DNA of 64,000 nucleotides from Gammaproteobacteria bacterium (GTDB taxonomy: Bacteria; Pseudomonadota; Gammaproteobacteria; UBA4575), in NCBI GenBank assembly GCA_965207475.1, contig OZ242278.1, forward strand, positions 74,748 to 138,747, in the 5' to 3' direction. This document shows, in pieces, positions 1,621 to 19,172 of the stretch. A program made the translations under genes and the position numbers. The first letter of the stretch is position 1. The number at the start of each line of letters is the position of its first letter. Under the pieces are notes generated by a model. It did no database searches and had not been told where the DNA came from. It saw only the letters and a list, made by a program, of their open reading frames with translations.

Positions 1621-1641
1621 AACAATTTTTTCAATTGATTT

Positions 1642-2457
1642 ATGACAACACTTCTGAGTTTGCATTCCCAGCCGGATGTTCCATTAGAGGCTGACACAAT
1701 CAGTCCTGACGCAATTACAGGATTGTCTGAGTTAGGCATTGAACATTTGCAGGTTTTACATGGGAATATCAAGGCGAGGGTTGGCGACTTTTTTAAAGTG
1801 ACTGGGAAGGGTGTCTCCGACATCTGTTTAGAAGGCGATTTGAGCAAAGTAAAGATGATCGGAGCCAGCATGTCAGTCGGGAGTATTACGGTTGAAGGCA
1901 ATGTTGGCATGCATGTTGGCATAGGCATGTCAGGGGGCCAGATACTGGTCAAGGGCGACGCATCAGACTGGGTAGGTCCTGAGATGACGGGTGGACGCAT
2001 AATTGTCAAGGGAAATGCTGGGCACATGGTAGGCAGCGCATTCCGCGGACAGGCTGTTGGAATTACAGGTGGAGAAATCTTCATTCATGGTGATGCAAAG
2101 AATGAGATAGGCAATTCCATGCGACGCGGGCTGATTGTAATCGGTGGTGATGCGGGAGATTTTACAGGAGTAAACATGCGCGCAGGTACAATCATCGTTA
2201 TGGGCAAGATGGGTATTCGTACAGGCGCTGGAATGATACGCGGAACAGTCGCTTGTTTCGAGGATGCACCAATGTTGCCTAGTTTTGAATATTCGTGTAA
2301 ATATCAGCCTTTATTCTTGCGCCTTTACCTGATAAGGCTGCAGAAAAATGGGTTCGGAAACAAAATAGAGGACAGACACCTGAACGGCAAATACAGACGC
2401 TTCAGCGGAGACGGGATTGAACTTAATCGTGGTGAGATCTTGCTTTACTTGCGGTAA
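1642..2457 (+). CDS. fhcC: Formyltransferase/hydrolase complex subunit C (FwdC-like)
   Basis: 271 aa with repeated Gly-rich beta-helix motifs (GGRIIVKGNAGHMVG, GGEIFIHGDA, LIVIGGDAGD), as in FwdC/GltB C-terminal domains. Follows fhcD. Confidence 0.85.
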   Translation: MTTLLSLHSQPDVPLEADTISPDAITGLSELGIEHLQVLHGNIKARVGDFFKVTGKGVSDICLEGDLSKVKMIGASMSVGSITVEGNVGMHVGIGMSGGQILVKGDASDWVGPEMTGGRIIVKGNAGHMVGSAFRGQAVGITGGEIFIHGDAKNEIGNSMRRGLIVIGGDAGDFTGVNMRAGTIIVMGKMGIRTGAGMIRGTVACFEDAPMLPSFEYSCKYQPLFLRLYLIRLQKNGFGNKIEDRHLNGKYRRFSGDGIELNRGEILLYLR

Positions 2458-2531
2458 TCAAATACTCATTATGTAAGCTTTCGCCTTGGCAAGTCTGTTT
2501 TATCCCCGTTCATAGAATAGGAGACAGTTGC

Positions 2532-2837
2532 ATGACTACGGTTGTAACAGAAAATTGTAAAGGATGCAGATTCACAGACTGTGTAGCAGTGTGCCCTGTT
2601 GCATGCTTTCACTATGATGATGAAATGCTTTATATAGATCCGGATGTCTGTATTGATTGCAGTGCCTGTATTCCGGAGTGTCCAGTAGAGGCAATATTTG
2701 AGGAGGACGATTTGCCGGAAGGCCTCGAAAATTGGGTAGAAATCAATGCGGAAAAAGCTCCTGATCTGCCTTTGATTGAAGAACCTATGGAACCACTCCC
2801 TGAAGCGGAAGATCGAAAGGCTGATCTGGGCTTTTGA
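2532..2837 (+). CDS. fdxA: 7Fe-type (Azotobacter FdxA-like) ferredoxin
   Basis: 101 aa. Cys patterns CKGCRFTDCVAVCP and CIDCSACIPECP. AGGAG lies about 8 nt upstream of the ATG. Confidence 0.85.
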   Translation: MTTVVTENCKGCRFTDCVAVCPVACFHYDDEMLYIDPDVCIDCSACIPECPVEAIFEEDDLPEGLENWVEINAEKAPDLPLIEEPMEPLPEAEDRKADLGF

Positions 2838-2928
2838 GGTATTGGTCAATGTTTTGCAGTTTTGACAGGTACAGTTTCTTTGCCTTCAAGCTAATACATG
2901 CATTAGCTGAGTCGGTTTAGGATTTTTT

Positions 2929-4311
2929 ATGAGTAAGTCAGGGGGCAGTTCAGTACCGCTGAGTGTCGCAATTGTAGGTAGTGGCCCAAGCGGGTTTTAT
3001 TCTACGGAAGCGTTGATCAAGTCAGGTATCAATGTAGAGATAGATTTGATTGATCGTCTCCCCGCACCGTATGGTTTGGTACGAAGTGGAGTAGCACCTG
3101 ATCATCCAAAGCTCAAGCAGGCAATCGAGGTATATAAGAAAATTGCTCAAAGTAATGAGTTCAATTTTGTAGGGAATGTGACAGTTGGCCGAGATATCGA
3201 AGCAGAAGAACTGCAACGGACGCATCATGCGGTTATTTATACATGTGGCGCTGAAACTGACCGCAAGCTGGGTATACCGGGTGAGGAGTTAGCTGGCAGT
3301 CATACTGCCACCGAGTTTGTAGGCTGGTATAACGGTCATCCTGACTATCGGAACCTGAACTTTGACTTGTCTCATGAAACTGCAGTAGTTATCGGGCAGG
3401 GTAATGTAGCAGCAGATGTGGCCAGGATATTGGCAAAGTCTGTTGATGAACTGAAACATACTGATATTGCACAACACGCGCTTGACGCACTTGCCAGCAG
3501 CCAGGTGAGAAAGATCTATGTAGTGGGCCGACGAGGTCCGGCGCAGGCAAAGTTCACTTCTAAGGAACTTAAGGAATTTTTGGAAATTGAAAACTGCCGC
3601 CCTTATATTGATCCAGTTGAACTTGAGTTGAACTCGACAAGCTTGCAGGAGCTTGATGCAAAAGAAGGCAGAGGAAATAAAAGGAATATTGAAATATTTC
3701 GAAAGTTTGCAGAATCCGAGGATACGGGCAAGCAACGAACCTGTATTTCTACTTTCCTGAAAAGTCCGATTCGCTTGCAGGGTGTGGACCGGCTGCAAAA
3801 AGTTGTATTTGAGGAAAATGACCTGTCAGGTGAGCTCTTCAAGCAGTCTGCAAAGGGAACAGGTAGAACCATGGAATTAGAGTGTGGGCTTCTATTTCGC
3901 AGTATCGGCTACAATGGCGTCCCCGTTCCAGGCGTGCCATTTAACGATAGGTGGGGCACCATTCCAAACCGGGCAGGGAGAATTACTTCTGAGCAGGAGG
4001 GTGCTGTGTTACCCGGTTTGTATACTGCCGGCTGGATCAAGCGTGGCCCCTCTGGAATTATTGGCACCAATCGAGCTTGTGCGGTGGAGTCAGTGAATGC
4101 TTTGCTTGAAGATGTAGACCAGCTTGTTGCGGAAGACAAACCCGGCCGTAATGGCCTGTATGCCATACTCGAACGTAATGGCGTACAGCACATTAATTTT
4201 GCACAGTGGGAAAAAATCGATGCAGCAGAAATTGCTGCAGGAAGTCCAAAGGGCAAACCTCGCGAAAAATTTACCTATTATAATGAGATGCTAGCTGCTG
4301 CCAAAGGCTGA
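2929..4311 (+). CDS. Adrenodoxin-reductase/FprA-type NADPH:ferredoxin reductase
   Basis: 460 aa. N-terminal FAD fold VAIVGSGPSGFY and a second dinucleotide fold VVIGQGNVAADVAR. Overall length and layout match FprA-type reductases. Confidence 0.75.
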   Translation: MSKSGGSSVPLSVAIVGSGPSGFYSTEALIKSGINVEIDLIDRLPAPYGLVRSGVAPDHPKLKQAIEVYKKIAQSNEFNFVGNVTVGRDIEAEELQRTHHAVIYTCGAETDRKLGIPGEELAGSHTATEFVGWYNGHPDYRNLNFDLSHETAVVIGQGNVAADVARILAKSVDELKHTDIAQHALDALASSQVRKIYVVGRRGPAQAKFTSKELKEFLEIENCRPYIDPVELELNSTSLQELDAKEGRGNKRNIEIFRKFAESEDTGKQRTCISTFLKSPIRLQGVDRLQKVVFEENDLSGELFKQSAKGTGRTMELECGLLFRSIGYNGVPVPGVPFNDRWGTIPNRAGRITSEQEGAVLPGLYTAGWIKRGPSGIIGTNRACAVESVNALLEDVDQLVAEDKPGRNGLYAILERNGVQHINFAQWEKIDAAEIAAGSPKGKPREKFTYYNEMLAAAKG

Positions 4312-6768: not shown

Positions 6769-7815
6769 ATGACGCCAAGAAAAATTTCCAGGGTCAGAAT
6801 CACTGAATCTAATAAAATTATGTACATGAACAGCCCGCAGGTATATATCAAGGCACCAGCTCGCCTGCATCTAGGATTTCTGGATCTTGAGGGTAGCTTG
6901 GGAAGACGGTTTGGTAGCCTTGGGCTCACACTTGATGGGATTGCTACACGCATTGTTGCAAGGCGTGATAGTCATTTCAATGTGCTTGGCAAGCCTGATG
7001 AACGGGTGGTGAAACTAGCAGAAAGATTTTTTGAGATCAAAGGATTGCCCGGTGGCTGTGAAATTGAAGTGTTGGAGCAGATACCCGCCCATTCGGGGCT
7101 AGGTTCTGGAACTCAGCTTGCGCTTGCAGTAGGAACTGCGATTTCCAAGCTCTATTCACTTGGATTTCCCTGTGAGGATATTGCTGTTACCTTAGATCGA
7201 GGCAAAAGATCTGGAGTTGGAATCGGTGCATTTCAACAGGGTGGATTTCTGCTGGATGCAGGGAAAAATCAGAGCAATTTTATTCCGCCCATTGTATCGA
7301 GGATAGCATTCCCATCTAAATGGCGTGTGGTTCTCATCATGGATTCGGCTTCGCACGGCTTGTATGGAGATGATGAAAGCACTTCATTTTCTAGCTTACC
7401 TCCAGTCTCTTCTGATATAGCATCATACCTGTGCAGGTTGACTTTGATGCAAATTATGCCAGCAGTGTCAGAGCAGGATTTGGGTACATTCAGCAAAGGA
7501 ATTCATGACCTGCAGCGATGTATGAGTGATTTTTTCGCATCACAGCAAGGTGGACGTTATACTAGTCATGTGGTCGGAGATGCGATTGGTTACATAGAGT
7601 CGCTGGGAATTAAGGGTGTAGGGCAAAGCTCTTGGGGACCAATAGGATTTGCCTTTGTAGGCAGTGAGGAGCAGGCACTTGTACTGTTACGTGCCTTGCA
7701 GGAAGAGTTCAGGAAAAAGAAAGAATTACAATTCAAGATAGTTTCAGGGCGAAACACAGGAGCTGTGGTTCAGCAGCAAGGCACGGTATCTTTGCCTGCA
7801 GCAGCAAAATTCTGA
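6769..7815 (+). CDS. mptG: Beta-ribofuranosylaminobenzene 5'-phosphate (beta-RFAP) synthase, GHMP-kinase fold
   Basis: Motifs 'APARLHLGFLDLEGSLGRRFGSLG' and 'IPAHSGLGSGTQLALAVG'. The true start may be ATG 6820 or 6826 (MNSPQVYIKAP...). Confidence 0.8.
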   Translation: MTPRKISRVRITESNKIMYMNSPQVYIKAPARLHLGFLDLEGSLGRRFGSLGLTLDGIATRIVARRDSHFNVLGKPDERVVKLAERFFEIKGLPGGCEIEVLEQIPAHSGLGSGTQLALAVGTAISKLYSLGFPCEDIAVTLDRGKRSGVGIGAFQQGGFLLDAGKNQSNFIPPIVSRIAFPSKWRVVLIMDSASHGLYGDDESTSFSSLPPVSSDIASYLCRLTLMQIMPAVSEQDLGTFSKGIHDLQRCMSDFFASQQGGRYTSHVVGDAIGYIESLGIKGVGQSSWGPIGFAFVGSEEQALVLLRALQEEFRKKKELQFKIVSGRNTGAVVQQQGTVSLPAAAKF

Positions 7816-7892: not shown

Positions 7893-8795
7893 ATGGAAAA
7901 GCCACAAATTTTGCACATGATTACCCCGGCTAAGAATCTAAGCCCATTTGATGTGAATATGGCTCTAGATGCAGGGTGGGGTCATGCAGTGGGCTACACT
8001 TATGTTGAAAAAGAGGAGGTGCAAGGTCTGATCCAGGATGCAATTTTTTCTCGAGGGCCCGCTGGCGCGAAGCGAACCGGAGTGTTTTTAGGCGGGCGGG
8101 ATATGCATGTCGCAATGGAAATGTTGCAGATTTGCAAGGAATCAATGGTGCCACCTTTTGAAGCCTCCTGTTTCGCTGATCCCAGCGGTGCATTCACAAC
8201 TGCTGCAGGAATGGTGGCTTGTGTCGAGCATGCCCTTGAAGAAAAATTCAGTACGAGCCTCCAAGGGAAACAGGTTGTGATAATGGGAGGTACAGGTCCA
8301 GTGGGTTCTACGGCTGCTGTTTTGGCAGCCAATGCCGGGGCAATTGTATACATTCTTGGTCGAAACAAAGAAAAGTCTGAGAAAGTTGCTGCTTTGTGTA
8401 ATCGGGAGTATGGCCAGGGAACCACAGAAATTCGCGGGGAAGCGAACGAAGTGATACATGAATTAATGCAAAATACAGACGTAGTACTTGCCGCAGGTGC
8501 TGCTGGGGTGCAGCTTGTTTCTGCAAAAAATATTGAAAGTTCAAGTGAGCTGAAGGTTGCTGCAGATGTTAATGCTGTACCACCTTCAGGTGTTGCAGGA
8601 CTTGACGTGATGGGAAACTGTAAACCTATAGAAGGTTCAGGCAGTGGTGCAGTCGGTATTGGTGCACTGGTTATTGGTAATGTGAAATACCAGACGCAGC
8701 ATAGGTTATTGCAAAAAATGTGTGGTGCAGAAAAGCCGACATATCTGCACTTTGAGCATGCCTTCGAAACAGCAAGGGAGATTGCCCGGGAGTAG
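7893..8795 (+). CDS. mtdB: NAD(P)-dependent methylene-tetrahydromethanopterin dehydrogenase
   Basis: N-terminus MEKPQILHMITPAKNLSPFDVNMALDAGW and dinucleotide fold VVIMGGTGPVGS. GAGGGA lies upstream of ATG 7893; the ORF track starts at TTG 7878. Confidence 0.85.
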   Translation: MEKPQILHMITPAKNLSPFDVNMALDAGWGHAVGYTYVEKEEVQGLIQDAIFSRGPAGAKRTGVFLGGRDMHVAMEMLQICKESMVPPFEASCFADPSGAFTTAAGMVACVEHALEEKFSTSLQGKQVVIMGGTGPVGSTAAVLAANAGAIVYILGRNKEKSEKVAALCNREYGQGTTEIRGEANEVIHELMQNTDVVLAAGAAGVQLVSAKNIESSSELKVAADVNAVPPSGVAGLDVMGNCKPIEGSGSGAVGIGALVIGNVKYQTQHRLLQKMCGAEKPTYLHFEHAFETAREIARE

Positions 8796-8843
8796 AAGAT
8801 TTTTCTGGTTGTAGCCATCTCTGGCCGCGCTATTGCTGAATCC

Positions 8844-9920
8844 TTGAAAGCCTGTGGCTATTCTGTGGCTGTTGTTGACGGGTTTTGCGACATGGATACA
8901 TGTTCAGTTGCTGATGCCAGTCTAAAAGTGTCACGAAAAACATCAGGCCTGGATAGTAGTGAAACTCTCGAGGCTGTGCAGAATTTGCGTGACACGTACC
9001 ACCTGAAAGGTTTGTTTTACGATGCTGCCTTGGAGTTTGATCCCGACATGCTGGATGCTGTCTCATTTGACAAGGTCATGGGTAATTCAAGTGCTACTCT
9101 GCGAATGTGCAAAGATCCAGAAGTATTTTTTTCGGTACTTGATGCAAACCAAATTCCGTATCCAGAGATCAGTTTCAAGCCTGTACAGGGTGACGAAGAG
9201 CAATGGTTGTGCAAAAGGTCAAGGAGTGCAGGTGGTACTGGTGTCACTACATTGACTGGCCCTCAGGTACAGGACCAAGGATCTTACTATCAGCGGAAAT
9301 TAGAGGGCGTGCCTTTTTCATTGACATTCTTGTCTAATGGTCAAAACCTGCATGCATTGGGATTCAATACCTTGTGGTGCAGGGATGCCGCGCCCGGTAT
9401 GCCTTTCCTATACGAAGGGGCAATCAATCACGTCAATCTTACAGATGAACAACGACTCGCCGCTTTGGGTTATGCAACCAGCTTGGTTCATGAGTTTGAG
9501 TTGGTCGGATTAAACAGTATCGATTTTATTCTTTCAAATGGACATGTTTTCGTGCTTGAAGTAAATCCACGTATTCCTGCGACCTTTGAATTATATGAGA
9601 CCAGACAGGGTAGCCTGATAAGAAATCACATAGATGCTTGTGTGCATGCTAGACTCAACCCGGCACCGGGAAGAACAAAGTTGCATGCACATATTATCGT
9701 TTATTCTCCAGCCACAATGTGTGTCCCGAGCAGCTTTAACTGGCCATTATGGACAGCGGATCGGCCTCATCCAGGGGAAGTCATCCGTAAAAATGAACCT
9801 CTATGCAGTGTATTTGCTGGAGGTAAAAATGTGTCTCAGGCATGTACTGCAGTGTGGTCGCGCAAGCAAGTCATTTTGGACATGCTCATGCAGGCAGGAT
9901 CGAAATCTTTTAAATCTTGA
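8844..9920 (+). CDS. ATP-grasp protein of the H4MPT/methanofuran island; the start is probably upstream at a non-canonical codon (see finding)
   Basis: ATP-grasp C-terminal pattern 'GLNSIDFILSNGHVFVLEVNPRIPATFELYE'. The first ATG/GTG/TTG is TTG 8844, but a conserved-looking N-terminus is encoded from 8799. Confidence 0.75.
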   Translation: MKACGYSVAVVDGFCDMDTCSVADASLKVSRKTSGLDSSETLEAVQNLRDTYHLKGLFYDAALEFDPDMLDAVSFDKVMGNSSATLRMCKDPEVFFSVLDANQIPYPEISFKPVQGDEEQWLCKRSRSAGGTGVTTLTGPQVQDQGSYYQRKLEGVPFSLTFLSNGQNLHALGFNTLWCRDAAPGMPFLYEGAINHVNLTDEQRLAALGYATSLVHEFELVGLNSIDFILSNGHVFVLEVNPRIPATFELYETRQGSLIRNHIDACVHARLNPAPGRTKLHAHIIVYSPATMCVPSSFNWPLWTADRPHPGEVIRKNEPLCSVFAGGKNVSQACTAVWSRKQVILDMLMQAGSKSFKS

Positions 9921-9931
9921 AAAGAGAACTG

Positions 9932-10885
9932 ATGATGCAAAATGTAAGTATAAATCGGTTAGTAAAGCCGTTAGTTCAGGAACTGATAGACAAGAACAGC
10001 GCTTTGAGAGTTGAGGTAGGTGAATTCAGTAATGGTGCAAAATTCATCGACGCAGGAATAGGCTGCATCGGTGGTCTTGAAGCTGGCCGGGTCATAGGAG
10101 AAATTTGTATGGGAGGACTGGGAACGATAACACTGTATCATGCGACAGCTGTGAGTGACTGGCCACTTTCCCTTCATGTTCATTCATCCAATCCTGTCCT
10201 AGCATGTTTGGCAAGCCAGTATGCTGGCTGGAGCTTATCGTATGAAGAATTTCATGCTCTGGGTTCTGGGCCGGGCCGGGCAATTGCGCGTAAAGAGTCC
10301 CTATTTGATGATTTAGGTTATGAAGATACTTGCGACAGTGCAACATTTGTGCTTGAAGTGGACCGGGCTCCTCCGGTGGCGCTCATTGACCGAATTGCCG
10401 AAACATGCAAGCTGGTGCCAGAAGCGTTGACATTTATTCTAACACCTACCAGGTCCATTGCAGGAACCGTGCAGATTGTTTCCAGAGTGCTGGAAGTTGC
10501 TATGCACAAGGTTCATGTGTTGGGGTTTCCTCTTGACGATATCATGGACGGCTCTGCAAGCGCACCACTATCTCCACCAGCACCTGATTTTGTAAAAGCT
10601 ATGGAACGTACCAATACGACTATTCTGTTTGCCGGTAGAGTGCATCTATTTGTTCGTGGAGATGATGCAAGTGCTGAAAAACTTGCCAAGGAGCTTCCAT
10701 CCAGCTCATCTGCTGATTACGGCAAGCCCTTTGCAGGTATACTTGAAGACTGTGGATATGACTTTTTCAAAATTGATCCAATGTTGTTCAGCCCTGCATG
10801 GGTGGCAGTTACATCAGTTGAAAGTGGTCGAACCTTCCAAGGTGGTCAACTGGCCCCAGACTTGCTAGCAGATTCGTTCTCCTGA
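9932..10885 (+). CDS. mch: Methenyl-tetrahydromethanopterin cyclohydrolase
   Basis: About 317 aa from ATG 9932 (MMQNVSINRLVKPLVQEL...). Length and position next to mtdB fit Mch. The ORF track begins at TTG 9917, overlapping the previous stop. Confidence 0.85.
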   Translation: MMQNVSINRLVKPLVQELIDKNSALRVEVGEFSNGAKFIDAGIGCIGGLEAGRVIGEICMGGLGTITLYHATAVSDWPLSLHVHSSNPVLACLASQYAGWSLSYEEFHALGSGPGRAIARKESLFDDLGYEDTCDSATFVLEVDRAPPVALIDRIAETCKLVPEALTFILTPTRSIAGTVQIVSRVLEVAMHKVHVLGFPLDDIMDGSASAPLSPPAPDFVKAMERTNTTILFAGRVHLFVRGDDASAEKLAKELPSSSSADYGKPFAGILEDCGYDFFKIDPMLFSPAWVAVTSVESGRTFQGGQLAPDLLADSFS

Positions 10886-10888
10886 ACC

Positions 10889-11815
10889 ATGTCGCGTCAT
10901 ATCGCCATCATCACCGATGATCCTGGTTGGCATGGGCAGCAGTTGCGAAAGGCTTTTAATGCCAAAGGCTATCGCTGTACCAATGTTTCATTGAAGAGTT
11001 GTCATTTAGACACAGCACTGAAACCTTACGGTTTGTGTATTCCTGGATTTGAAGGATCTTTACCTTCCGGCGTATTTGTCCGAGGTGTACCCGGCGGCAC
11101 CTTGGAAGAAGTTGTGTTTTATCTGGACATATTGCATGCAATGCGCGAACTCAATGTATTTGTATATAACGAAGTACGTGCAATAGAACGGAGCGTCGAT
11201 AAAGGAATGACGAGTTTTCTGCTTAGTCAAGCAGGAATTTCTACACCTCCTACATGGGTAGGCAACAACATTCATGATGCATATGCCTTTATTCGAAAAC
11301 AGTTAGGATCAGGGCATAAGGTAGTTTTGAAGCCTCTATTTGGTTCACAGGGTAAAAATTTGCAACTGATTACTGGGCATAGTGATTTTGCAGATTTTAC
11401 TCTTTACAACAACCTGTTTTATTTGCAGAGATATATAGAAACTGGTTCAGAAGGTGCTCATGATTGGAGGTTGCTCGTCATAGGGGAACGAGTAGTTGCA
11501 ATGATGAAAAGACAGGGAAGCGGCTGGATTTCCAATGTAGCAACAGGCGGAAAATGTATTCCTGCAGTCTTGGATGAGAAGTTTACAGGGCTGGCGAAGA
11601 GTGCTGTAAAGGCAGTCGATATGCATTATGGTGGTGTGGATGTTATGCGTGGTGACTGCGGAACTCTCTGGGTAACTGAAGTAAACAGCATTCCAGCATG
11701 GAAAGGTCTGCAAAGTGTGAGCCAGATAGATGTTTCGGAGATGCTGGTTGAGCATTTCCTGTGCAGTCTGCAGCAATATTCTGATTTCACGTGCTCAGAC
11801 AAGATTGGAGGTTGA
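10889..11815 (+). CDS. RimK-type ATP-grasp ligase (tetrahydromethanopterin:alpha-L-glutamate ligase-like)
   Basis: 308 aa. N-terminus MSRHIAIITDDPGWHG, plus 'VVLKPLFGSQGKNL' and 'GVDVM....LWVTEVNSIPAWKG', typical of the RimK family. Starts 3 nt after mch. Confidence 0.8.
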   Translation: MSRHIAIITDDPGWHGQQLRKAFNAKGYRCTNVSLKSCHLDTALKPYGLCIPGFEGSLPSGVFVRGVPGGTLEEVVFYLDILHAMRELNVFVYNEVRAIERSVDKGMTSFLLSQAGISTPPTWVGNNIHDAYAFIRKQLGSGHKVVLKPLFGSQGKNLQLITGHSDFADFTLYNNLFYLQRYIETGSEGAHDWRLLVIGERVVAMMKRQGSGWISNVATGGKCIPAVLDEKFTGLAKSAVKAVDMHYGGVDVMRGDCGTLWVTEVNSIPAWKGLQSVSQIDVSEMLVEHFLCSLQQYSDFTCSDKIGG

Positions 11816-11831
11816 GAAGGGATTGCACATA

Positions 11832-11839
11832 TAAAATAA
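11832..11839. repeat. Target-site duplication, left copy (TAAAATAA)
   Basis: Identical octamer lies immediately outside both IRs (second copy at 16141-16148). Confidence 0.85.
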
Positions 11840-11864
11840 GGGGCTTATATACAAAAGTTACCGG
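11840..11864. repeat. Terminal inverted repeat (transposase 3'-proximal end): GGGGCTTATATACAAAAGTTACCGG
   Basis: 24/25 match to the reverse complement of 16116-16140. The transposase stop codon abuts it. Confidence 0.9.
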
Positions 11865-12794
11865 CTACTTAGTTAAGTCCCTATACTTCAATCGCTTGCC
11901 TTCCATGCCCCTAACAACTCTAGCCATTTGGTCAGGAGTATCCAGTTCCCTGATGTTATAGCGACCAGCAAATTCCTGGACGTAACGGTTCAGGTGCTTT
12001 TCTGACACATGGTGATAAGTACCGTGGTAGCCTCTTTTAAATATTGCCCAGAAAGATTCAATTCCATTTGTGTGTGCCTGGTCTCTCACGTACTCAGAAA
12101 CAGAATGCTTGACGGCTGTGTGTCGGTACTTCTTCTTCAGTGTCCTGTAACCACGATGGTCGTCAGTATAGACAGTTGATTCTTCCTGTACTGACTTCTC
12201 CACAAACTCACCAAGTGTTTTGCTATTTACCTTGTTGATGGGTTGAGCCACGATCTTGCCATTACGCTGTTTGGCTCCAACAACCGGATGCTTGTCCACT
12301 GGCCCACGACCGATTTTCTTGCGCTTGCTGGCATGCTTGTTCTTATCCTTTCCACCGATGTAGGTTTCATCAATTTCAACAACACCTTGAAGTTTCAAAT
12401 TACCAATGTCGAAAGCCTCACGGATGCGCTGTAGCATGAACCAGGCAGATTTTTGTGTGATGCCAAGTTCCCTGTGCAGCTTCAAGCTGCTGACACCTTT
12501 CAATCCGGTTGTAGCCATGTAGATCGCGATGGCCCAGTGCTGTAGCTTAATCTTGCTGCCTTCCATGATTGAGTCTTTACGGACACTGAAGAACTGCCTG
12601 CAATCCTTACAACGATACTTCATTGTTTTGTGCGTGGTATGGGTGTGATTGGCAGAACCACAATCAGGACAGACTGGGCCATCCGGCCAGCGTTCCTGCT
12701 CAAGCCACCGTTCTGCTGCATTATCGTCAGGGAACCTTTCTAGTAACTCAAAGATTGTCAGACCCTTGCGATATGATTTACCCGGACCAGCCAT
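11865..12794 (-). CDS. IS1595-family transposase (zinc-ribbon + DDE)
   Basis: 309 aa. N-terminal zinc ribbon CPDCGS...CKDCRQFF, a helix-turn-helix region, and the motifs IDETYIGG, VYTDDHRGY and HTNGIESFWAIFKRG. Appears intact. Confidence 0.9.
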   Translation of the reverse strand: MAGPGKSYRKGLTIFELLERFPDDNAAERWLEQERWPDGPVCPDCGSANHTHTTHKTMKYRCKDCRQFFSVRKDSIMEGSKIKLQHWAIAIYMATTGLKGVSSLKLHRELGITQKSAWFMLQRIREAFDIGNLKLQGVVEIDETYIGGKDKNKHASKRKKIGRGPVDKHPVVGAKQRNGKIVAQPINKVNSKTLGEFVEKSVQEESTVYTDDHRGYRTLKKKYRHTAVKHSVSEYVRDQAHTNGIESFWAIFKRGYHGTYHHVSEKHLNRYVQEFAGRYNIRELDTPDQMARVVRGMEGKRLKYRDLTK

Positions 12795-12821
12795 TTTCTT
12801 TCCTCTGTTTGGTTATAGTAG

Positions 12822-12834
12822 GGTAACTATAGTA
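12822..12834. repeat. Internal IR-like half-site (GGTAACTATAGTA) upstream of the transposase start
   Basis: 12/13 match to the inner part of the right IR (16118-16130, GGTAACTATTGTA). The outer tip is not conserved. Confidence 0.4.
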
Positions 12835-13182
12835 CCTGAAATAAAACCAGAGGTAAACAAATTTTATTATAGTATCAGATTATTTTATGGAATAATTATC
12901 TCCTCACTCAAGTGAGGCACTTCCCACATTATTTTCCTGCGTTTAAGAAAGTACTTGTCATTGAATGACTAGCTGAATTACAATTCCGCTTGTCAACTCT
13001 ACTAAGACCCCGAAGCCGGGTTATCTGCCGAATGCAATACCATTCGAGCATGGTAAATAGGCTAAATTTTCTTTGTTCTGTGGAAACAGGCAGAGACTCC
13101 ACTTTCTTAGTAGACGTTGACAAATGGCCCGGCACCTATGGCGTGCCGGAAAGTTGATGTCTACTTGAAGAGGGAGTGTGAA

Positions 13183-15162
13183 ATGAAGCCTATTTCTATT
13201 CTTATAATCTTGCTGTTTGCCTTCACGTTGGCTGCGTGTGGAGGTGGGGGAAGCAGCGGTCCTGCACCGATGGCACCAGAAGAACCGATGGAGCCTATGG
13301 AGCCGGAACCTACCCCTGAAGAACAGGCTGCAGCAGACGCTGCGATGAAGGCTGCAAATGATGCGGCAACTACTGCAAATGCAGCAGCTATGGCAGCAAT
13401 GGATGCCGTAAATGCCGCTACTCTGGCAGACTCTATGGCAGCAAGTGATGCTGCAACCGCTGCAACAGCAGCCGCCCAAGCTGCAACAGCAGCCGCAACA
13501 GCGGTGATGGCTGGTGACATGGCAACAGTGGATGCCGCCAATGCCGCAGCAATGGCCGCTAATGATGCTGCAGATGCTGCAAACATGGCTGCGTCGGACC
13601 TGAACATGGCGGAAGCAGATGCTCAAGCAGAAGCGGAACGAATGGCCGCAGCCGAGCAAGCCCGTATCATGGGTCTGACTGCAGCAATTGCTGACCCGGA
13701 TGGTGACGGTATGGTTCCTGAATCAGGTGAATTACATCACAGGAATCGACCAAGTGCAGCAATCACATTCGATGATGACATGATTGTAGTGGGTGGCGAC
13801 ACGCTTCGGAAAAATGACACCAACATCAAAAATGACTACGAGTTTGGCAATACGCCTGCTGCTGCAGAGATCGAGTTGCCAGGCTTTGATGGAGCAGTCT
13901 ATCGGCGCACCACCGAAAAGGGTGCCATGGATACAGTGACAGTCTACACAGATGTTGAAGAAGCTGGTGATGTACTGTTCAACGATTTTTTCATCGCAAC
14001 AGGAGATGATGGGGCACAAACTGATGATGCCGATGGCTTCACAGTAACCGACGTTACCGATGCTCAACAAACTGCAGCGGGAGAGGATGGGGAAACCCAG
14101 TACGACATGATCACCTTTGCAGCCAATGTAAGTCCAGCTGCCAAACATATCATGAGTTCCAGAATTCCAACTACACCAGGAACAAATGTAATAGAGCCTA
14201 CGGTATCAAGAGGCACGGGTACAGGTGGTGCAGACGAACTCATTTATGTATTTACCGGGAGTTTTTACGGAGTATCTGGAACATTCAGATGTGCTAGTGC
14301 TTGCGTAATCACCTTGGGTAGTGGTGAAGATGACGTCTTTACAGTGGTTGATGGTGTCTCTGGCACTCCTGGCCCTGTTGTACTGACTTTCCGACCTGAA
14401 AACACAGTTAATGATACCGAGGATCAACTCGTAGTTGCTGGCGTCACTAAGGATGATGACTACATGGCATTCGGATACTGGATGCAGACCAGTGGAAGCG
14501 GTGACAATATGAAATATGGTGTAGGCGTTTTCGAAGATGGAGCCATGCCGTATGGCGGTGCTACTGCGAGCACGGAAATTCAACAACTGACTGGCAAGGC
14601 CACGTATGATGGCTCTGCCACTGGAATGTATGCCAGGAAAGAACTCACTGTACAGGATGGTAGAGCCGTAGTGGGGAATCCAGTGGATGCAGGTCAGTTT
14701 TCTGCGGATGTAAGCCTGACCGCTTATTTCAATAATGTGATAACAGTCGCTGACGCAACCGTCGCAAACATTGATTCCATTTCCAACGCCCAAAGGTTCT
14801 CCATCAGTGGCACAGTAGACAACTTCCAAGATGCCAGCGGGGATATGATTGATTCAGGCTGGTCGGTCAATCTCGGCAAGGCCAGCTTCGCTACATTTGC
14901 TAATGATGGAACTATTAGTGCCGCCACGAACAGTTTTTCTGGCAGTACCGGAAGTGGAAGCATGGTGGGTGAATGGGAAGGCACATTTTATGGCGATGCA
15001 GCAGACAAGGTCGCAGCTGACTTTACCGACATAACCGGGGGTCAGACTGCTGCACAACAAGCAGCAACTGCAAATGCCACCAACTACCCAACGAGTGTCG
15101 CTGGTGAATTCACCGGCCACTTTACAAACGGTCACGTAATCGGCGCGTTTGGCGCAAAGTGA
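13183..15162 (+). CDS. TbpB-like surface lipoprotein with an Ala/Met-rich low-complexity N-terminal region (IS passenger)
   Basis: GGGAG lies upstream of ATG 13183. Signal peptide with lipobox (MKPISILIILLFAFTLAAC) followed by GGGGSSG. C-terminal barrel-type motifs DYMAFGYW, GKATYDGSATGMYA, GEWEGTFYGDAA, VAGEFTGHF and VIGAFGAK. The ORF track starts at TTG 13117. Confidence 0.8.
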   Translation: MKPISILIILLFAFTLAACGGGGSSGPAPMAPEEPMEPMEPEPTPEEQAAADAAMKAANDAATTANAAAMAAMDAVNAATLADSMAASDAATAATAAAQAATAAATAVMAGDMATVDAANAAAMAANDAADAANMAASDLNMAEADAQAEAERMAAAEQARIMGLTAAIADPDGDGMVPESGELHHRNRPSAAITFDDDMIVVGGDTLRKNDTNIKNDYEFGNTPAAAEIELPGFDGAVYRRTTEKGAMDTVTVYTDVEEAGDVLFNDFFIATGDDGAQTDDADGFTVTDVTDAQQTAAGEDGETQYDMITFAANVSPAAKHIMSSRIPTTPGTNVIEPTVSRGTGTGGADELIYVFTGSFYGVSGTFRCASACVITLGSGEDDVFTVVDGVSGTPGPVVLTFRPENTVNDTEDQLVVAGVTKDDDYMAFGYWMQTSGSGDNMKYGVGVFEDGAMPYGGATASTEIQQLTGKATYDGSATGMYARKELTVQDGRAVVGNPVDAGQFSADVSLTAYFNNVITVADATVANIDSISNAQRFSISGTVDNFQDASGDMIDSGWSVNLGKASFATFANDGTISAATNSFSGSTGSGSMVGEWEGTFYGDAADKVAADFTDITGGQTAAQQAATANATNYPTSVAGEFTGHFTNGHVIGAFGAK

Positions 15163-15378
15163 CTAAATGAACACCAGCCCGGTTCGTATGATTTTCCGGG
15201 TTGCTGTGCTCTCAAGAGACTAGACATCGCTTGAGGCTCCAGTCGTACCAGCCAGAACTAACACTGACTGGTACGACATTTACATAGGAACAGGGGCATT
15301 TGTTGAATTTGCTAAATCCTGCCTTTGCCCCTTCATCGTGAGAAACAACCCCCACGAAAGTTGGTTCTCACACCACGG

Positions 15379-15404
15379 CCAAGCCCCTTCGGGGGCTTGG
15401 TTTT
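15379..15404 (+). terminator. Rho-independent terminator downstream of the lipoprotein gene
   Basis: CCAAGCCCC-TTCG-GGGGCTTGG (9-bp GC-rich stem) followed by TTTT. Confidence 0.7.
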
Positions 15405-15466
15405 CTTGCAGTTTACATGCTGTAACCAGAGAGCAATCCGTTTACTATTTTTATGGAGTATATTGA

Positions 15467-15766
15467 ATGGCCGTTTCCGATAGAAAGAAAGTCATTATCA
15501 GAACCAATATCTTAACCTTGATGTTGCTCGCTTATACTGCAGTACTGATAGTATTCTTGGTATTAGTTTGGTGTACCGAAATGTCAACAGGAGATGTGTG
15601 GAACTGTGTAGAAGCCCCGCTGATGGCCCTCATTGGAGGAACACTTGCAATCTCGAAAGATCTTGTTAGTCCTGATGAATCAGATCCCAACCAAGAGGGA
15701 AATAATGGAATAACTCCAAGCCCCCAACCCAACCAACAAGGGAGCACCAATAATCCCAATCCATAG
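15467..15766 (+). CDS. Small two-helix membrane protein with a Pro/Asn/Gln-rich tail (IS passenger), no recognisable family
   Basis: 99 aa. GGAG lies 8 nt upstream of the ATG. Hydrophobic stretches ILTLMLLAYTAVLIVFLVLVW and APLMALIGGTLAI. Tail PNQEGNNGITPSPQPNQQGSTNNPNP. Confidence 0.5.
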   Translation: MAVSDRKKVIIRTNILTLMLLAYTAVLIVFLVLVWCTEMSTGDVWNCVEAPLMALIGGTLAISKDLVSPDESDPNQEGNNGITPSPQPNQQGSTNNPNP

Positions 15767-15970
15767 GAGAATTAAATCTATATCTTCACTCATCTTCATT
15801 CACCTCGCCAATTCACATTCGATGTTTTATTGTCTATTGGTATATTATAGTTTACTAATATTCTGCTTGGCTACAGCTTCCAGTTGGTAGAATAATCTCC
15901 CAAATAATCTTGTTTAGATTTCTACATTAGGTAGGTAGTATAAGGAAAGTAGCCTGCATGGAATCTAGAC

Positions 15971-16099
15971 ATGAAGAAAGCTAAACGTGGCCGTCCTGAG
16001 ACCCGCAAGATAAAGATTGAAGCTAGTCCTGAATATGCTGTGAAGGCAATCTTCGCAGCAGGGAAACTACCTAAGAAAACGAAGCAGAAGAAGGACTAG
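15971..16099 (+). CDS. Candidate 42-aa basic small ORF next to the right IR
   Basis: ATG 15971 to TAG 16097-16099 translates to MKKAKRGRPETRKIKIEASPEYAVKAIFAAGKLPKKTKQKKD. It is below the ORF-track size cutoff and has a weak RBS. Confidence 0.25.
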   Translation: MKKAKRGRPETRKIKIEASPEYAVKAIFAAGKLPKKTKQKKD

Positions 16100-16115
16100 G
16101 TATGCCGGGTGCCGT

Positions 16116-16140
16116 CCGGTAACTATTGTATATAAGCCCC
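16116..16140. repeat. Terminal inverted repeat (distal end): CCGGTAACTATTGTATATAAGCCCC
   Basis: Its reverse complement matches 11840-11864 at 24/25 positions. Confidence 0.9.
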
Positions 16141-16148
16141 TAAAATAA
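16141..16148. repeat. Target-site duplication, right copy (TAAAATAA)
   Basis: Identical to 11832-11839. Confidence 0.85.
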
Positions 16149-16345
16149 GTCTTTGTCGGGATAGTGCTCCAAGCATTGATACTGCTAAATCTTCATCTAC
16201 AGGTAAGGGGAGTTCAAGGCTTATCACCAGAGGTTCGCAAGTTGCATCCTGTGATCTTGTTTCGAGGAATCCCACAAATCTGTTTCCCCCTGCTTTGCCA
16301 GCAAATACTTGAATTCTTGTCGCAATTTCAACATTACTTCTCACG

Positions 16346-17200
16346 ATGGATGACCTGACTTCCCGCTGTGCAGCCTTAGCAAAACTGTATCGGCATGCAT
16401 GCTGGGTCGATATACATGCACTGAAACCGGGCAATACAGGAATCCACTCCATGAACCCATCCCCTAGTGTTCAGGAATTCTTGTGCAGTGCCGAAGTTAG
16501 CGCCCCACCTCTGACAGCGCCTGGCTTGACGTTGGGAGCACGGATATTGCAGGCGGTACAAGCCACACAGACGATGGTTGGCACGAATACGAATCTAGGA
16601 ATCATACTGCTCATAGCACCTATGGTTCAGGCTTCTCTGAGCAAGGAAACAGTGTCTGGTTATGCTGATTTGTTGGCAGAAGTTCTGCTGCGGTCAACAG
16701 TAGAGGATGCAAGAAATGTGTATGAGGCAATCAGAACAGCAAAGCCAGGAGGGCTTGGACATAAAAAAACCCAGGATATACTTGAAGAACCTACTGTAAC
16801 TCTTTTAGATACAATGAAAATTTCTTCTTCATGGGACAGTGTTGCCAGGCAGTATTCAAGTAATTTCCAAGATATACTTGATTTTGGTGTACCACGGTTT
16901 AAGGATTTGATGGAGCGGTGGAACGATGAATGCTGGGCTGCAACGGGGCTGTATATCGGTTTCCTGGCAAGATTCCACGATAGTCTGATTGAACGGAAAT
17001 ACGGCATATTAAAAGCTCGTGCAATTAGTGATATGATCTCCCCGCTTGAAAAGGAATTCTATAGTTCGGATTCGCCAGTCAGGTATAAGGCTCAATTGCT
17101 GGAAATTGATGATCTGCTGAGGCGTGATCATATTAATCCGGGAACTACAGCGGACCTGACTGTGGCTAGTATCTTTGCAACTGGGCTAGGTATGTTGTAA
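16346..17200 (+). CDS. Triphosphoribosyl-dephospho-CoA synthase (CitG/MdcB)-family protein of the H4MPT island
   Basis: 284 aa. 'DIHALKPGNTG', 'GTNTNLGIILL' and 'INPGTTADLTVASIF' resemble CitG/MdcB-family motifs. Its position between the RimK-like ligase gene and fae matches known methylotroph islands. Confidence 0.7.
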   Translation: MDDLTSRCAALAKLYRHACWVDIHALKPGNTGIHSMNPSPSVQEFLCSAEVSAPPLTAPGLTLGARILQAVQATQTMVGTNTNLGIILLIAPMVQASLSKETVSGYADLLAEVLLRSTVEDARNVYEAIRTAKPGGLGHKKTQDILEEPTVTLLDTMKISSSWDSVARQYSSNFQDILDFGVPRFKDLMERWNDECWAATGLYIGFLARFHDSLIERKYGILKARAISDMISPLEKEFYSSDSPVRYKAQLLEIDDLLRRDHINPGTTADLTVASIFATGLGML

Positions 17201-17203
17201 GTA

Positions 17204-17212
17204 TGGTATAAT
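17204..17212 (+). promoter_or_regulatory. Putative extended -10 promoter (TGGTATAAT) for fae
   Basis: Perfect TATAAT preceded by TGn, located 86 nt upstream of the fae ATG and just after the preceding stop codon. Confidence 0.4.
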
Positions 17213-17297
17213 TCGGCGCTGCTAGCGTGATCCAACAGGGTACAAGCGGACCTGTGGTCTGCAGTTATCGACAATAAAATGAAACAGGAGAACTATA

Positions 17298-17825
17298 ATG
17301 GCATTGATTAACAAAGTAATGGTCGGGGAGTCGCTCGTTAACGATAACGATCCTTCCGGCACAATGGCAGAAATCGCACATATTGACTTATTGATTGGTC
17401 CGCGTGGCTCTGCTGTTGAGACTGCTTTTTGTAATGGCTTGGTTAATAATAAGGACGGCTTTTCCACTTTGCTGGCTGTAATTGCCCCTAATTTACCTTG
17501 TAAGCCAAACACTATGATGTTCAACAAGGTTACAATCAAAGGTGCAAATCAAGCAGTACAGATGTTTGGTCCTGCACAGATGGCAGTAGCAAAGGCTGTA
17601 GCGGACAGTGTTGAAGATGGGACTATCCCTGCGGATGAAGCAGATGATGTGTTCGTATGTGTAGGAGTTTTCATTCATTGGGAGGCCAAGGACAATGCGG
17701 CGATCTATGAAAACAACTACAAGGCAGTGAAGGAATCACTGGCACGTGCGATAAAAGATGAGCCTAAGGCTTCTGCAGTTGTTGCCCAGAAGGACAGCGC
17801 GGAGCATCCATTCAAAGGCTTCTGA
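17298..17825 (+). CDS. fae: Formaldehyde-activating enzyme (5,6,7,8-tetrahydromethanopterin hydro-lyase)
   Basis: 175 aa. Contains [14 protein letters not shown]...[12 protein letters not shown]...[18 protein letters not shown]. Strong RBS (AGGAGA) upstream and a strong terminator downstream. Confidence 0.92.
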
Positions 17826-17850
17826 TCTCAATTTTGAGAAAGGCTATGAA

Positions 17851-17882
17851 AATGCCCCGCAATTGCGGGGCATTTTTTTTGG
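17851..17882 (+). terminator. Rho-independent terminator of fae
   Basis: AATGCCCCGC-AATT-GCGGGGCATT followed by a T-run of at least 8. Confidence 0.85.
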
Positions 17883-17895
17883 TGGACGTGTTTGT

Positions 17896-17904
17896 TGATA
17901 TAAT
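17896..17904 (+). promoter_or_regulatory. Putative extended -10 promoter (TGATATAAT) for the PTPS-fusion gene
   Basis: TGnTATAAT lies between the fae terminator and ATG 17952. It overlaps the TTG used by the ORF track, which argues for the later ATG start. Confidence 0.35.
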
Positions 17905-17951
17905 TGGATAAACGATGTGCAGATGGACCAAATCAACAGCTGGGGTTATAC

Positions 17952-19172
17952 ATGCAGTGCCTTGATTGTCGAAAAGATGTAGGCAGTCGATTGACAAATG
18001 AGCATCTCCTAGCATGCAGCGGATTGACGCTGCAAGAGTACGCATTACGCCATCATCTGCCTTTGGACATGATTCTTAGCACGGATCAGATAAATCAGGC
18101 AGATGACATTTCTTTGTACCGCAAACCGGGAAGAAGTGTGAACAAGCTGGCGCTGGATGTTCTTGCAGGTTTGGAGATGGCACGGGCACTCAAGCAGCAT
18201 GGTGAGTTTACAATCGTATCATTGGGCATACGCAGGCTAGAGCAATTGCTATGGTATCTGGAATCGTTGTGCTCTTTGGGGTTTCAGTTCAGACAGGAAT
18301 ATGCATATGAAGATTCCACACACCGTGTCATCGCCAAGAACAGCTTGAAAATTCCAAGTGCATGGTTGGCTTCACAAATTGAGCAGTCTTCTACAGGGTC
18401 ATTTCTGCAGCGCCTGTCCATACTAGTTGCTCATATCGGCGAAATACATGCAGGGTATCTATTTATAGACTTTCCAGAGAGCAAGGATGCGATCAGGATA
18501 AGTGATCATTTGGAAAGAAATTTTCATATCCATTTGAAGCATTTGGATGCTTCGAAACATGAAAACGGCATACTGGCAAGGTGCAAGACTCGAACAGACT
18601 CGTCTTGTTTACTGAGTCTAGTCAAAGAGTATCTGGAAAACATACCGGTTGCAAAAGACAGGTTTTTTGAAAAATACGATCAGGCTACAGTGGTCAAGGA
18701 ACTGGTGTTTGATTCGGCCCATTTTATTACTGACCATCCTGGTAAATGTGCGAATTTGCACGGCGGTCGCTATGCCATGAGGGTCAAAGTCAGGGATCAA
18801 ATTGATCCACTTACGGGTTTTGTCGTGGATTATGGACACTTGAAACAAACAGTCAGCCGGAAAGTGATAGCAAAACTTGATCACCAAACACTGAATTATG
18901 TTACTGCTGGCTTGAGTTGGCGTTCCAGCACTGAGTTACTTACCGTTTACATATGGGAAAATCTGATTGAATACCTGCCAGGCCTGACTGAATTGCAAAT
19001 ATTTGAAACAGACAGGTCGTACTGCAGTTACACCGGCCCCAAACTACATGAACTGCAAAAACGTGGACAAAATGTCTTGCTGGATTATTTCTCGTCAGAC
19101 AACTTGGGCAAGTCGGGCTTGAGGTGGCTGTTACATCAGGACATGCGGGAAAGACTGAAAGTTATCGGTTGA
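17952..19172 (+). CDS. Two-domain protein: uncharacterised ~240-aa N-terminal domain fused to a 6-pyruvoyl-tetrahydropterin synthase (PTPS/QueD)-fold domain
   Basis: C-terminal 'VFDSAHFITDHPGKCANLHGGRY...GFVVDYGHLK...LDHQTLNYV...FETDRSYCSY' matches the PTPS/QueD pattern. The N-terminal part (MQCLDCRKDVGSRLTNEHLLAC...) is not recognisable. Confidence 0.7.
   Translation: MQCLDCRKDVGSRLTNEHLLACSGLTLQEYALRHHLPLDMILSTDQINQADDISLYRKPGRSVNKLALDVLAGLEMARALKQHGEFTIVSLGIRRLEQLLWYLESLCSLGFQFRQEYAYEDSTHRVIAKNSLKIPSAWLASQIEQSSTGSFLQRLSILVAHIGEIHAGYLFIDFPESKDAIRISDHLERNFHIHLKHLDASKHENGILARCKTRTDSSCLLSLVKEYLENIPVAKDRFFEKYDQATVVKELVFDSAHFITDHPGKCANLHGGRYAMRVKVRDQIDPLTGFVVDYGHLKQTVSRKVIAKLDHQTLNYVTAGLSWRSSTELLTVYIWENLIEYLPGLTELQIFETDRSYCSYTGPKLHELQKRGQNVLLDYFSSDNLGKSGLRWLLHQDMRERLKVIG

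Follow-up and report, generated by a model that had tools for sequence, protein, structure and literature searches.

Slam has been described as an outer-membrane translocon that is aided by Skp (PMC9090332), and the surface lipoproteins that depend on it exhibit a handle followed by a C-terminal eight-stranded β-barrel (Hooda et al. 2017, PMC5449769). Knowledge on the cargo of this type XI secretion pathway comes almost only from iron-piracy and immune-evasion proteins of animal pathogens. Regarding mobile vehicles, relatives of the insertion sequence (IS) IS1595 that carry passenger genes have been named "transporter IS" (Siguier, Gagnevin and Chandler 2009, as cited in PMC3129680). Here we report on a 64,000-nucleotide stretch, referred to as the window, of contig OZ242278.1 (positions 74,748-138,747; assembly GCA_965207475.1) from a gammaproteobacterium of GTDB lineage UBA4575. 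The lipoprotein gene located at positions 13183-15162 of the window is the cargo of a 4.3-kb IS1595-family element, and its product is probably a surface lipoprotein that depends on Slam (type XI secretion) and belongs by structure to the TbpB/HpuA class.

The lipoprotein open reading frame (ORF) lies on the + strand, starts with ATG 13183, comprises 659 residues and terminates with a stop codon ending at 15162. A Shine-Dalgarno sequence, GAGGGAG (13170-13176), is found seven bases 5' of the start codon. The N-terminus, MKPISILIILLFAFTLAAC followed by GGGGSSG, forms a lipoprotein signal peptide (13183-13239, + strand) with the lipobox L-A-A-C, Cys19 and a glycine at position +2. The lipobox rule was applied by eye to this protein; among the aligned homologues, 43 out of 45 contain the cysteine within the motif L-[AY]-[AG]-C, with GGGG after it. 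A glycine next to the lipobox cysteine is, under the usual +2 rule, no inner-membrane retention signal, and the window lipoprotein therefore carries none. Its C-terminal part contains the motifs DYMAFGYW, GKATYDGSATGMYA, FSADVSLTAYF, ISGTVDNF, GEWEGTFYGDAA and VAGEFTGHF, and ends with VIGAFGAK. An earlier note, made from the DNA letters alone, had described the signal peptide, the LAAC lipobox, the Gly/Ser linker, the Shine-Dalgarno sequence and these C-terminal motifs, and all of them were confirmed at ORF 13183-15162. The database gene model (P0001, 674 residues) starts 15 codons upstream, at ATG 13138. ATG 13183 is the better start, since homologues begin with MKP or MKL and the additional codons (13138-13182) fall inside a conserved leader hairpin described below. 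A start placed too early, as in P0001, would mask the signal peptide from predictors. A word-indexed search returned 49 homologues. The ratio of non-synonymous to synonymous substitution rates (dN/dS) against the 89%-identical gene of a sister genome is 0.23 (0.30 for the barrel alone), and synonymous divergence amounts to 0.03 in the first 44 codons and 0.27 overall. To judge from this dN/dS, the gene is under purifying selection. Because it has homologues, a kept lipobox and this low dN/dS, ORF 13183-15162 is not a chance ORF.

The AlphaFold2 model of the full-length protein (predicted local distance difference test, pLDDT, 79.8) comprises a disordered tether (residues 20-44), Ala-rich helices (residues 45-170), a β-rich region (residues ~190-420) and a barrel-like domain (residues ~421-659). 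A second model, covering residues 185-659, reaches a pLDDT of 83.9 and a predicted template modelling score (pTM) of 0.80. The Ala-rich region (13315-13692, + strand) is predicted to form a stalk of three long helices (residues 45-79, 84-107 and 113-170; pLDDT about 80-93). At this same position, before the handle, longer family members return weak sub-threshold matches with coiled-coil families (one of ten sampled representatives). The ensuing β-rich "handle" (13750-14442, + strand) ends in a conserved hairpin, in which Cys370 is invariant and Cys374 is at least 90% conserved across the family, while variability within the family peaks in the N-terminal part of the handle, with a mean identity of 25% as compared with 44% for the barrel. 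The predicted C-terminal β-barrel domain (14443-15162, + strand; pLDDT mostly 85-98) contains the family motifs and the terminal GAFGAK. It also holds most of the invariant columns, the remainder being located in the handle hairpin (residues 359-370).

Foldseek analysis of residues 185-659 against the PDB reports ten top matches that are all Slam-dependent lipoproteins, and nothing else significant. They include HpuA of Neisseria and Kingella (9mr0, 5ee4 and 5ec6; E=1e-5 to 8e-5, probability 1.00), TbpB from three species (4qq1, 4o3w and 3pqs) and the HphA haemophore (6om5). HpuA also ranks first with the full-length model, the TM-score being poor owing to the stalk. The structure prediction and Foldseek search that the earlier note had put forward thus returned significant matches with HpuA, TbpB and HphA.

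HpuA, a single-lobe protein, is therefore the best fold match and also represents the only Pfam family touched by the window protein. Both proteins possess a lipobox, a flexible linker and a Gly/Phe-rich C-terminal strand, and one handle-plus-barrel lobe, as in HpuA, is predicted for the window protein. However, they share only 14-18% identity, the Pfam score stays under the cut-off and the TM-score is ~0.3. The window protein is twice the size of HpuA, has a helical stalk of ~125 residues that is absent from HpuA, and is found without an HpuB-type receptor and without a haemoglobin context. With the bilobed transferrin and lactoferrin receptors TbpB and LbpB (PF01298), it has in common the logic of anchoring and Slam-dependent export, and their C-terminal motifs (GxFYG...AGxF...GAFGAK) may also resemble its own. 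In contrast, it has one lobe instead of two, does not match PF01298, and no TbpA-like partner was found.

The genomic context of the family was analyzed in 56 distinct loci from a scan of GTDB species genomes, searched with our own hidden Markov models (HMMs) for Slam, the family and the transposase. A Slam (DUF560) gene is located within 10 kb of the family gene in 25 of them, and mostly starts 0-300 nt past the stop codon of the latter. The locus of P0004, a 52% homologue, comprises a family member, a Slam (PF04575 and TPR_Slam; SlipAM), two lipoproteins of 281 residues with faint TbpB_B_D matches, and P0004. It is a textbook Slam cluster and exhibits what Hooda et al. (2017, PMC5449769) list as hallmarks of surface lipoproteins that depend on Slam. 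The genomic context settles the class to which the family belongs. The view of the earlier note that the gene encodes a TbpB-type surface lipoprotein is therefore supported by the conserved lipobox, by the ten Foldseek matches and by this linkage.

The window gene itself is not adjacent to a Slam gene, as HMM search of the 64-kb window returned none at E<=1e-5. A Slam protein of 449 residues (P0187), taken from a Slam-cluster member listing, is encoded on a contig of 2,140,536 bp, and the contig of the window protein P0001 likewise measures exactly 2,140,536 bp. P0187 and P0189, the Slam of the sister genome, share 97% identity, and on the sister contig the 89% homologue P0002 lies ~19 kb from P0189. 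Moreover, on OZ244849.1 and OZ243969.1 the family gene has no Slam within 10 kb, yet a Slam is encoded elsewhere on the same chromosome. This pattern suggests that service by a Slam in trans is common in the family and may extend to the window gene. A Slam translocator very probably resides on the same chromosome as the latter. The claim that the lipoprotein has no translocator partner thus stands for the 64-kb window, but very probably not for the chromosome. In the sister genome, only fragments remain of the family gene located just 5' of Slam, preceded by a weak copy of the leader (locus L059, 6983-8814 and 9806-11260), whereas the IS-borne gene ~19 kb from Slam is intact. The resident, Slam-adjacent gene may have been replaced by the mobile one.

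The element that carries the window gene is bounded by a left terminal inverted repeat of 25 nt, GGGGCTTATATACAAAAGTTACCGG (11840-11864, + strand), and a right terminal inverted repeat with one mismatch to the left arm (16116-16140, - strand). It is flanked by an 8-bp target-site duplication, TAAAATAA, read from the sequence at 11832-11839 on the left and identical to the right copy at 16141-16148. The inverted-repeat search reports arms of 26 nt (11839-11864 and 16116-16141) with 96% complementarity (2 matches; the expectation from shuffled sequences is 0). In both arms, the outermost base is part of the target-site duplication. From the arms and the duplication, the element covers positions 11840-16140 (4301 bp). 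Its transposase (11865-12794, - strand; 309 residues) belongs to the IS1595 family and comprises an N-terminal zinc ribbon and a DDE domain (PF12762, E=9e-44; PF12760, E=2e-12; NF033547, E=1e-57). The inverted repeats and the 8-bp duplication enclose the lipoprotein gene, and the same cassette occurs in a different IS1595 element of the sister genome, which bears out the earlier reading of this gene as IS cargo. A second passenger ORF (15467-15766, + strand; 99 residues), of uncertain coding status, has a hydrophobic N-terminal part and a Pro/Asn/Gln-rich tail. For this ORF and a small basic ORF, searches returned no Pfam match, one weak sub-threshold NCBIfam match (for the 99-residue ORF) and no counterpart in any fetched locus. 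The window contains a single copy of the element and no empty site was found; exact search for its inverted repeat in the fetched loci revealed no further copy. The window element resembles the transporter IS mentioned above by its IS1595 transposase with zinc ribbon, its terminal inverted repeats, its 8-bp duplication and its genes unrelated to transposition. It differs from them in that a surface lipoprotein gene travels in it as a complete expression unit.

The element of the sister genome (L001; ERZ24894577 ctg522139l) spans positions 7924-12312 (4389 bp) and carries the same lipoprotein cassette. The segment common to both genomes corresponds to window positions 12853-15404, with 89% nucleotide identity. 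The two elements differ in other aspects: the L001 element exhibits perfect 24-nt inverted repeats, GGGGATTATATACCTTACTAACCG, and an 8-bp duplication, CAATTTAC, and is inserted at a different locus. Its transposase is broken or frameshifted and, where the two can be aligned (the N-terminal 159 residues), only 56% identical to that of the window. The extra ORFs of the L001 element are not those of the window element.

Further traces of IS1595 accompany family genes. In locus L049, an IS1595-family element (54-3034; 2981 bp, with 25-nt inverted repeats ATGGGAATTATATACCAAAGTAACA) is inserted in a family gene, which is truncated by it, only the C-terminal part remaining after the right repeat. In L002 (5840-5864) and L001 (6739-6760), solo terminal repeats of IS1595 type (GGGG-N-TTATATAC...) are found next to family genes, the one in L002 (OY759361.1) being located about 60 nt 5' of the Slam start codon. 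These solo repeats look like scars of earlier IS-mediated delivery. In L008, the closest GTDB relative of the window organism (95% identity in lysyl-tRNA synthetase, LysRS), an IS1595-type element of 2.6 kb (16166-18758) is bounded by perfect 22-nt inverted repeats and includes ~1.6 kb that does not belong to the transposase. IS1595 elements with cargo seem to be common in this lineage.

Within the window element, the lipoprotein gene is preceded by a putative sigma-70-like promoter (12955-12984, + strand; TTGTCA, 18 nt, TACAAT) with 10 out of 12 consensus matches. This site ends where conservation of the leader begins, and all six aligned loci have a TAnnnT hexamer at the corresponding columns. 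The ensuing 5' leader (12984-13182, + strand) is predicted to fold into a closing stem of ~21 bp, a multi-branch core and a hairpin CCGGCAC...GTGCCGG, followed by the Shine-Dalgarno sequence GAGGGAG. Over its ~200 nt, the leader keeps 78-87% nucleotide identity to loci whose proteins share only 40-52%. Its minimum free energy is -73 kcal/mol (z=-5.0). A covariance model identified 15 leader copies in total, across which 89% of the cells pair and 32 of the 44 pairs show compensatory changes; in slid controls, the share of pairing cells is 34-48%. These values come from an alignment fitted to the covariance model, which favours the structure. Many G-U pairs fall on the + strand, which argues for the leader acting as a sense-strand RNA. 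Rfam search of the window reports no match to the leader at gathering score, and nothing credible at E<=1 within 11700-16400. The leader is therefore a candidate for a new cis-regulatory RNA, as judged from conservation and covariation. An alternative view of its inverted repeat, as a miniature inverted-repeat transposable element (MITE) or an integron attC-like DNA site, was rejected as the main explanation because of the fixed distance to the start codon, the -10-like hexamer directly 5' and the many sense-strand G-U pairs. Downstream of the coding sequence, an intrinsic terminator (15379-15409, + strand), CCAAGCCCC-TTCG-GGGGCTTGG followed by TTTTCTT, reaches -21.1 kcal/mol (z=-3.8) and closes, on its 3' side, the cassette that the sister genome also carries. 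The cassette is thus a complete expression unit, composed of promoter-like site, structured leader, coding sequence and terminator.

Leader copies precede family genes in Gammaproteobacteria and Thiotrichales loci, and are located at 9802-10003 in L001, 9804-10003 in L003, 9802-10003 in L005, 9803-10003 in L004 and 8216-8413 in L029. A metagenome scan with a 20-nt leader pattern returned 55 stretches, 4 of which contain a real leader (L061, L100, L107 and L111; five copies), the rest being chance matches. L100 contains two copies, both on the - strand (176-375 and 6865-7065). Three leaders are orphans, with no family gene behind them (L061, 793-995; L107, 1028-1227; L111, 1623-1814). In L107, the leader stands directly before TehB-TrkH genes, in the slot that P0004 holds in OY759361.1. 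These orphans suggest that the coding part was deleted or exchanged while the leader was kept.

The family is large. With clusters formed at 50% identity, an exhaustive profile search reports 5,623 cluster representatives at E<=1e-3, of which 1,934 reach E<=1e-30. It is devoid of any Pfam or NCBIfam model, and ten sampled representatives returned no significant Pfam match. The GTDB loci belong to Gammaproteobacteria, Thiotrichales, Alphaproteobacteria, Nitrospirales, Thermodesulfobacteriota, 'Candidatus Synechococcus spongiarum' and one metagenome-assembled genome (MAG) of Caldilineaceae. In a rough neighbour-joining tree, members from Gamma- and Alphaproteobacteria, Nitrospirales, Thermodesulfobacteriota and cyanobacterial MAGs are intermixed, which points to horizontal transfer; some of the cross-phylum cases lie on short contigs, for which a binning error is possible, and others on chromosome-level assemblies. 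A 2017 survey (PMC5449769) had placed Slam in Proteobacteria alone. Pairs of a family gene and Slam occur beyond this phylum in the chromosome-level MAGs L013 and L031 (Nitrospirales), L022 (Thermodesulfobacteriota) and L038, L039 and L046 (unclassified 'bacterium'). In L032, L042 and L047 (Ca. Synechococcus spongiarum-type) and in L034 (Caldilineaceae, Chloroflexota), family members lie on contigs of 2.8-13 kb without Slam; these cases reflect either a transfer into lineages without a known Slam pathway, or a binning error.

Many of the bin names belong to sponge-microbiome series. Those other than SB06xx are series that we take to be sponge-derived. The SB06xx series is listed among sponge Entoporibacteria (PMC7883664). 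Our literature search found no paper linking Slam or DUF560 to sponges, and none linking sponge symbionts to IS elements together with lipoproteins.

Regarding possible partners, no TonB-dependent receptor was found among the window ORFs of at least 596 residues. Three homologous loci, inspected through their gene tables, revealed none either, and neither did a sample of 20 large ORFs adjoining family genes or Slam pairs. The absence of a receptor partner stated in the earlier note is thus confirmed in the large ORFs of the window and holds for the 20 large neighbours of the homologues, and the metal or cofactor capture that it had raised as a speculative idea is weakened by the missing receptors. 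A host or environmental macromolecule is favoured over nutrient capture as the ligand because no receptor partner was found, the handle is hypervariable and the family is spread among co-resident symbionts. The exposed lobe may bind an external, probably host-derived, ligand and act as an adhesion, recognition or evasion factor like NilC, fHbp or PmSLP. The favoured functional model is NilB/NilC of Xenorhabdus nematophila, a DUF560 translocator and its lipoprotein, the likeness being drawn from context and not from a comparison of sequence or fold. This Slam-type pair of an invertebrate symbiont was acquired horizontally, has no receptor partner and is needed to colonise the nematode host (bioRxiv 10.1101/2020.01.20.912956).

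If we assume that the window protein follows the path of its class, its precursor would be exported by the Sec system and lipidated at Cys19, and the glycine at +2 would direct it to the outer membrane. A trans-encoded Slam of the same chromosome would then thread it to the cell surface. There, the protein would present its Ala-rich helical stalk, its hypervariable β "handle" and its conserved C-terminal barrel, and the exposed lobe could bind a host or environmental macromolecule. Expression of the gene may be regulated through the structured leader. The data show the ORF with its lipobox, the IS boundaries, the fold class, the Slam linkage of the family and a Slam protein on a contig of equal length; surface display through Slam, the kind of ligand, the regulation by the leader and the present-day mobility of the cassette are inferred.

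Several results weigh against the assignment to Slam-dependent lipoproteins of the TbpB/HpuA class and against the role derived from it. The Foldseek TM-scores range between 0.2 and 0.35, a poor global superposition that identifies the fold class but not a close structural match. The profile search against TbpB-like models, suggested by the earlier note, gave no match above a curated cut-off: HpuA (PF16960) is hit with E=6e-6 and 26.2 bits, below the gathering cut-off of 29.7, while TbpB_B_D (PF01298) is not matched by the window protein, its best hit having E=0.0095, in 2 of 45 members. Neither PF16960 nor PF01298 is matched by ten further family representatives. NCBIfam scan of the window lipoprotein returned only noise, single-sequence and profile searches of PDB sequences returned low-complexity Ala-rich matches, with HpuA 5ee2 at E=0.12, and when the family profile was compared by hhalign with the small TbpB_B_D-like lipoproteins encoded in the same Slam clusters, the alignment covered no more than the signal peptide and the linker. 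As for the export step, P0187 is placed in the window genome by the equal contig sizes (2,140,536 bp) and not by read DNA, its acceptance of the window lipoprotein as cargo is an assumption, and the short cyanobacterial MAG contigs with family members show no Slam. Lastly, it is the names that point to a sponge origin of most MAGs, and the host-interaction role is deduced from context only.

Other explanations may be considered in the light of these data. The protein might be a nutrient-capture co-receptor that picks up a metal, haem or cofactor at the cell surface and hands it over to a TonB-dependent receptor whose gene lies elsewhere, in the way that TbpB serves TbpA and HpuA serves HpuB. 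HpuA, TbpB and HphA, the significant fold matches, are indeed all iron or haem acquisition proteins, Hooda et al. (2017, PMC5449769) report a TonB-dependent receptor in 120 out of 185 Slam clusters, and the structured leader could in principle be a metabolite-sensing riboswitch. However, solved structures are skewed towards the iron systems of pathogens, so the fold match tells little of the ligand. Furthermore, no such receptor appeared in any of the three gene sets searched, and the putative ligand-binding handle is the most variable part of the protein, which is unusual for a fixed small-molecule ligand. We therefore regard this explanation as unlikely. A periplasm-facing lipoprotein, lipidated, sorted by Lol and kept on the inner leaflet of the outer membrane, would be expected if the IS copy had lost its matching Slam, and there is no Slam in the 64-kb window. 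Slams differ in cargo specificity, as do Slam1 and Slam2 of Neisseria, which also counts in favour of this view. It is nevertheless less likely still, as a Slam is very probably encoded on the same chromosome and the barrel is under apparent purifying selection (see the dN/dS above), while degradation of the Slam-adjacent copy next to an intact IS-borne one in the sister genome suggests that the IS copy is the working cargo.

Two more explanations appear highly improbable. A released, haemophore-like protein, secreted by Slam into the medium like HphA or hemophilin, is brought to mind by the presence of HphA (6om5) among the fold matches and by type XI systems that also secrete soluble TbpB_B_D proteins (bioRxiv 10.1101/2020.01.20.912956), but the nearly invariant lipobox cysteine and the long stalk behind it both point to anchoring. 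An inert passenger, decaying DNA that hitch-hikes on the IS without present function, would agree with the many degraded family loci (the fragments beside Slam in L059, a family gene that is split in L014 and one that is disrupted by an IS in L049) and with the leaders of L061 and L107 that have no gene behind them; it is at odds with an intact ORF of 659 codons that diverges from the sister copy with a dN/dS of 0.23, and with the retention of promoter-like site, leader, Shine-Dalgarno sequence and terminator. A surface-displayed Slam cargo of the TbpB/HpuA class thus accounts best for the window lipoprotein.

Once the window lipoprotein is viewed as such a cargo, the "orphan" puzzle raised by its missing neighbours dissolves, and what stands out is the mobile cassette, the cross-phylum spread and a new candidate structured RNA. 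As compared with the pathogen proteins described so far, the family represents a very large, unmodelled branch of Slam cargo, stalked and without a receptor partner, that is spread over several phyla, apparently in genomes of sponge symbionts. IS1595 transporter elements provide a concrete vehicle for a whole expression unit, and the conserved structured leader a testable regulatory handle. One may go further and view the cassette as a mobile symbiosis factor, shuttled by IS1595 among unrelated bacteria of the same sponge, with the handle serving in host recognition or evasion, the leader as a new sensor of the host setting, and Slam secretion as a general host-interaction system beyond Proteobacteria, including Nitrospirales and Thermodesulfobacteriota. 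Taken as a whole, this extension is speculative and rather doubtful. If the protein does bind a host molecule, it would offer a tractable molecular entry to symbiont recognition in an early-branching animal.

The LysRS of the window shares 95% identity with its counterpart in the Gammaproteobacteria MAG OZ244849.1, and 65% with that of Microbulbifer, the nearest cultured organism among the matches listed. This places the window organism in an uncultured gammaproteobacterial lineage with chromosomes of ~2 Mb. The IS1595 element sits between genes of a tetrahydromethanopterin (H4MPT) C1 cluster, downstream of mch (9917-10885) and of a RimK/MptN-like ligase gene (10889-11815), and upstream of fae (17298-17825). 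The description of the organism as a methylotroph is plausible with regard to this cluster with mch and fae, but no methanol or methane oxidation gene was seen. As delimited by the flanking segments 11816-11839 and 16141-16345, the element splits a co-directional H4MPT row (mch and ligase on one side, an ORF and fae on the other), and the H4MPT genes located 3' of it now need their own promoter or read-out from the element.

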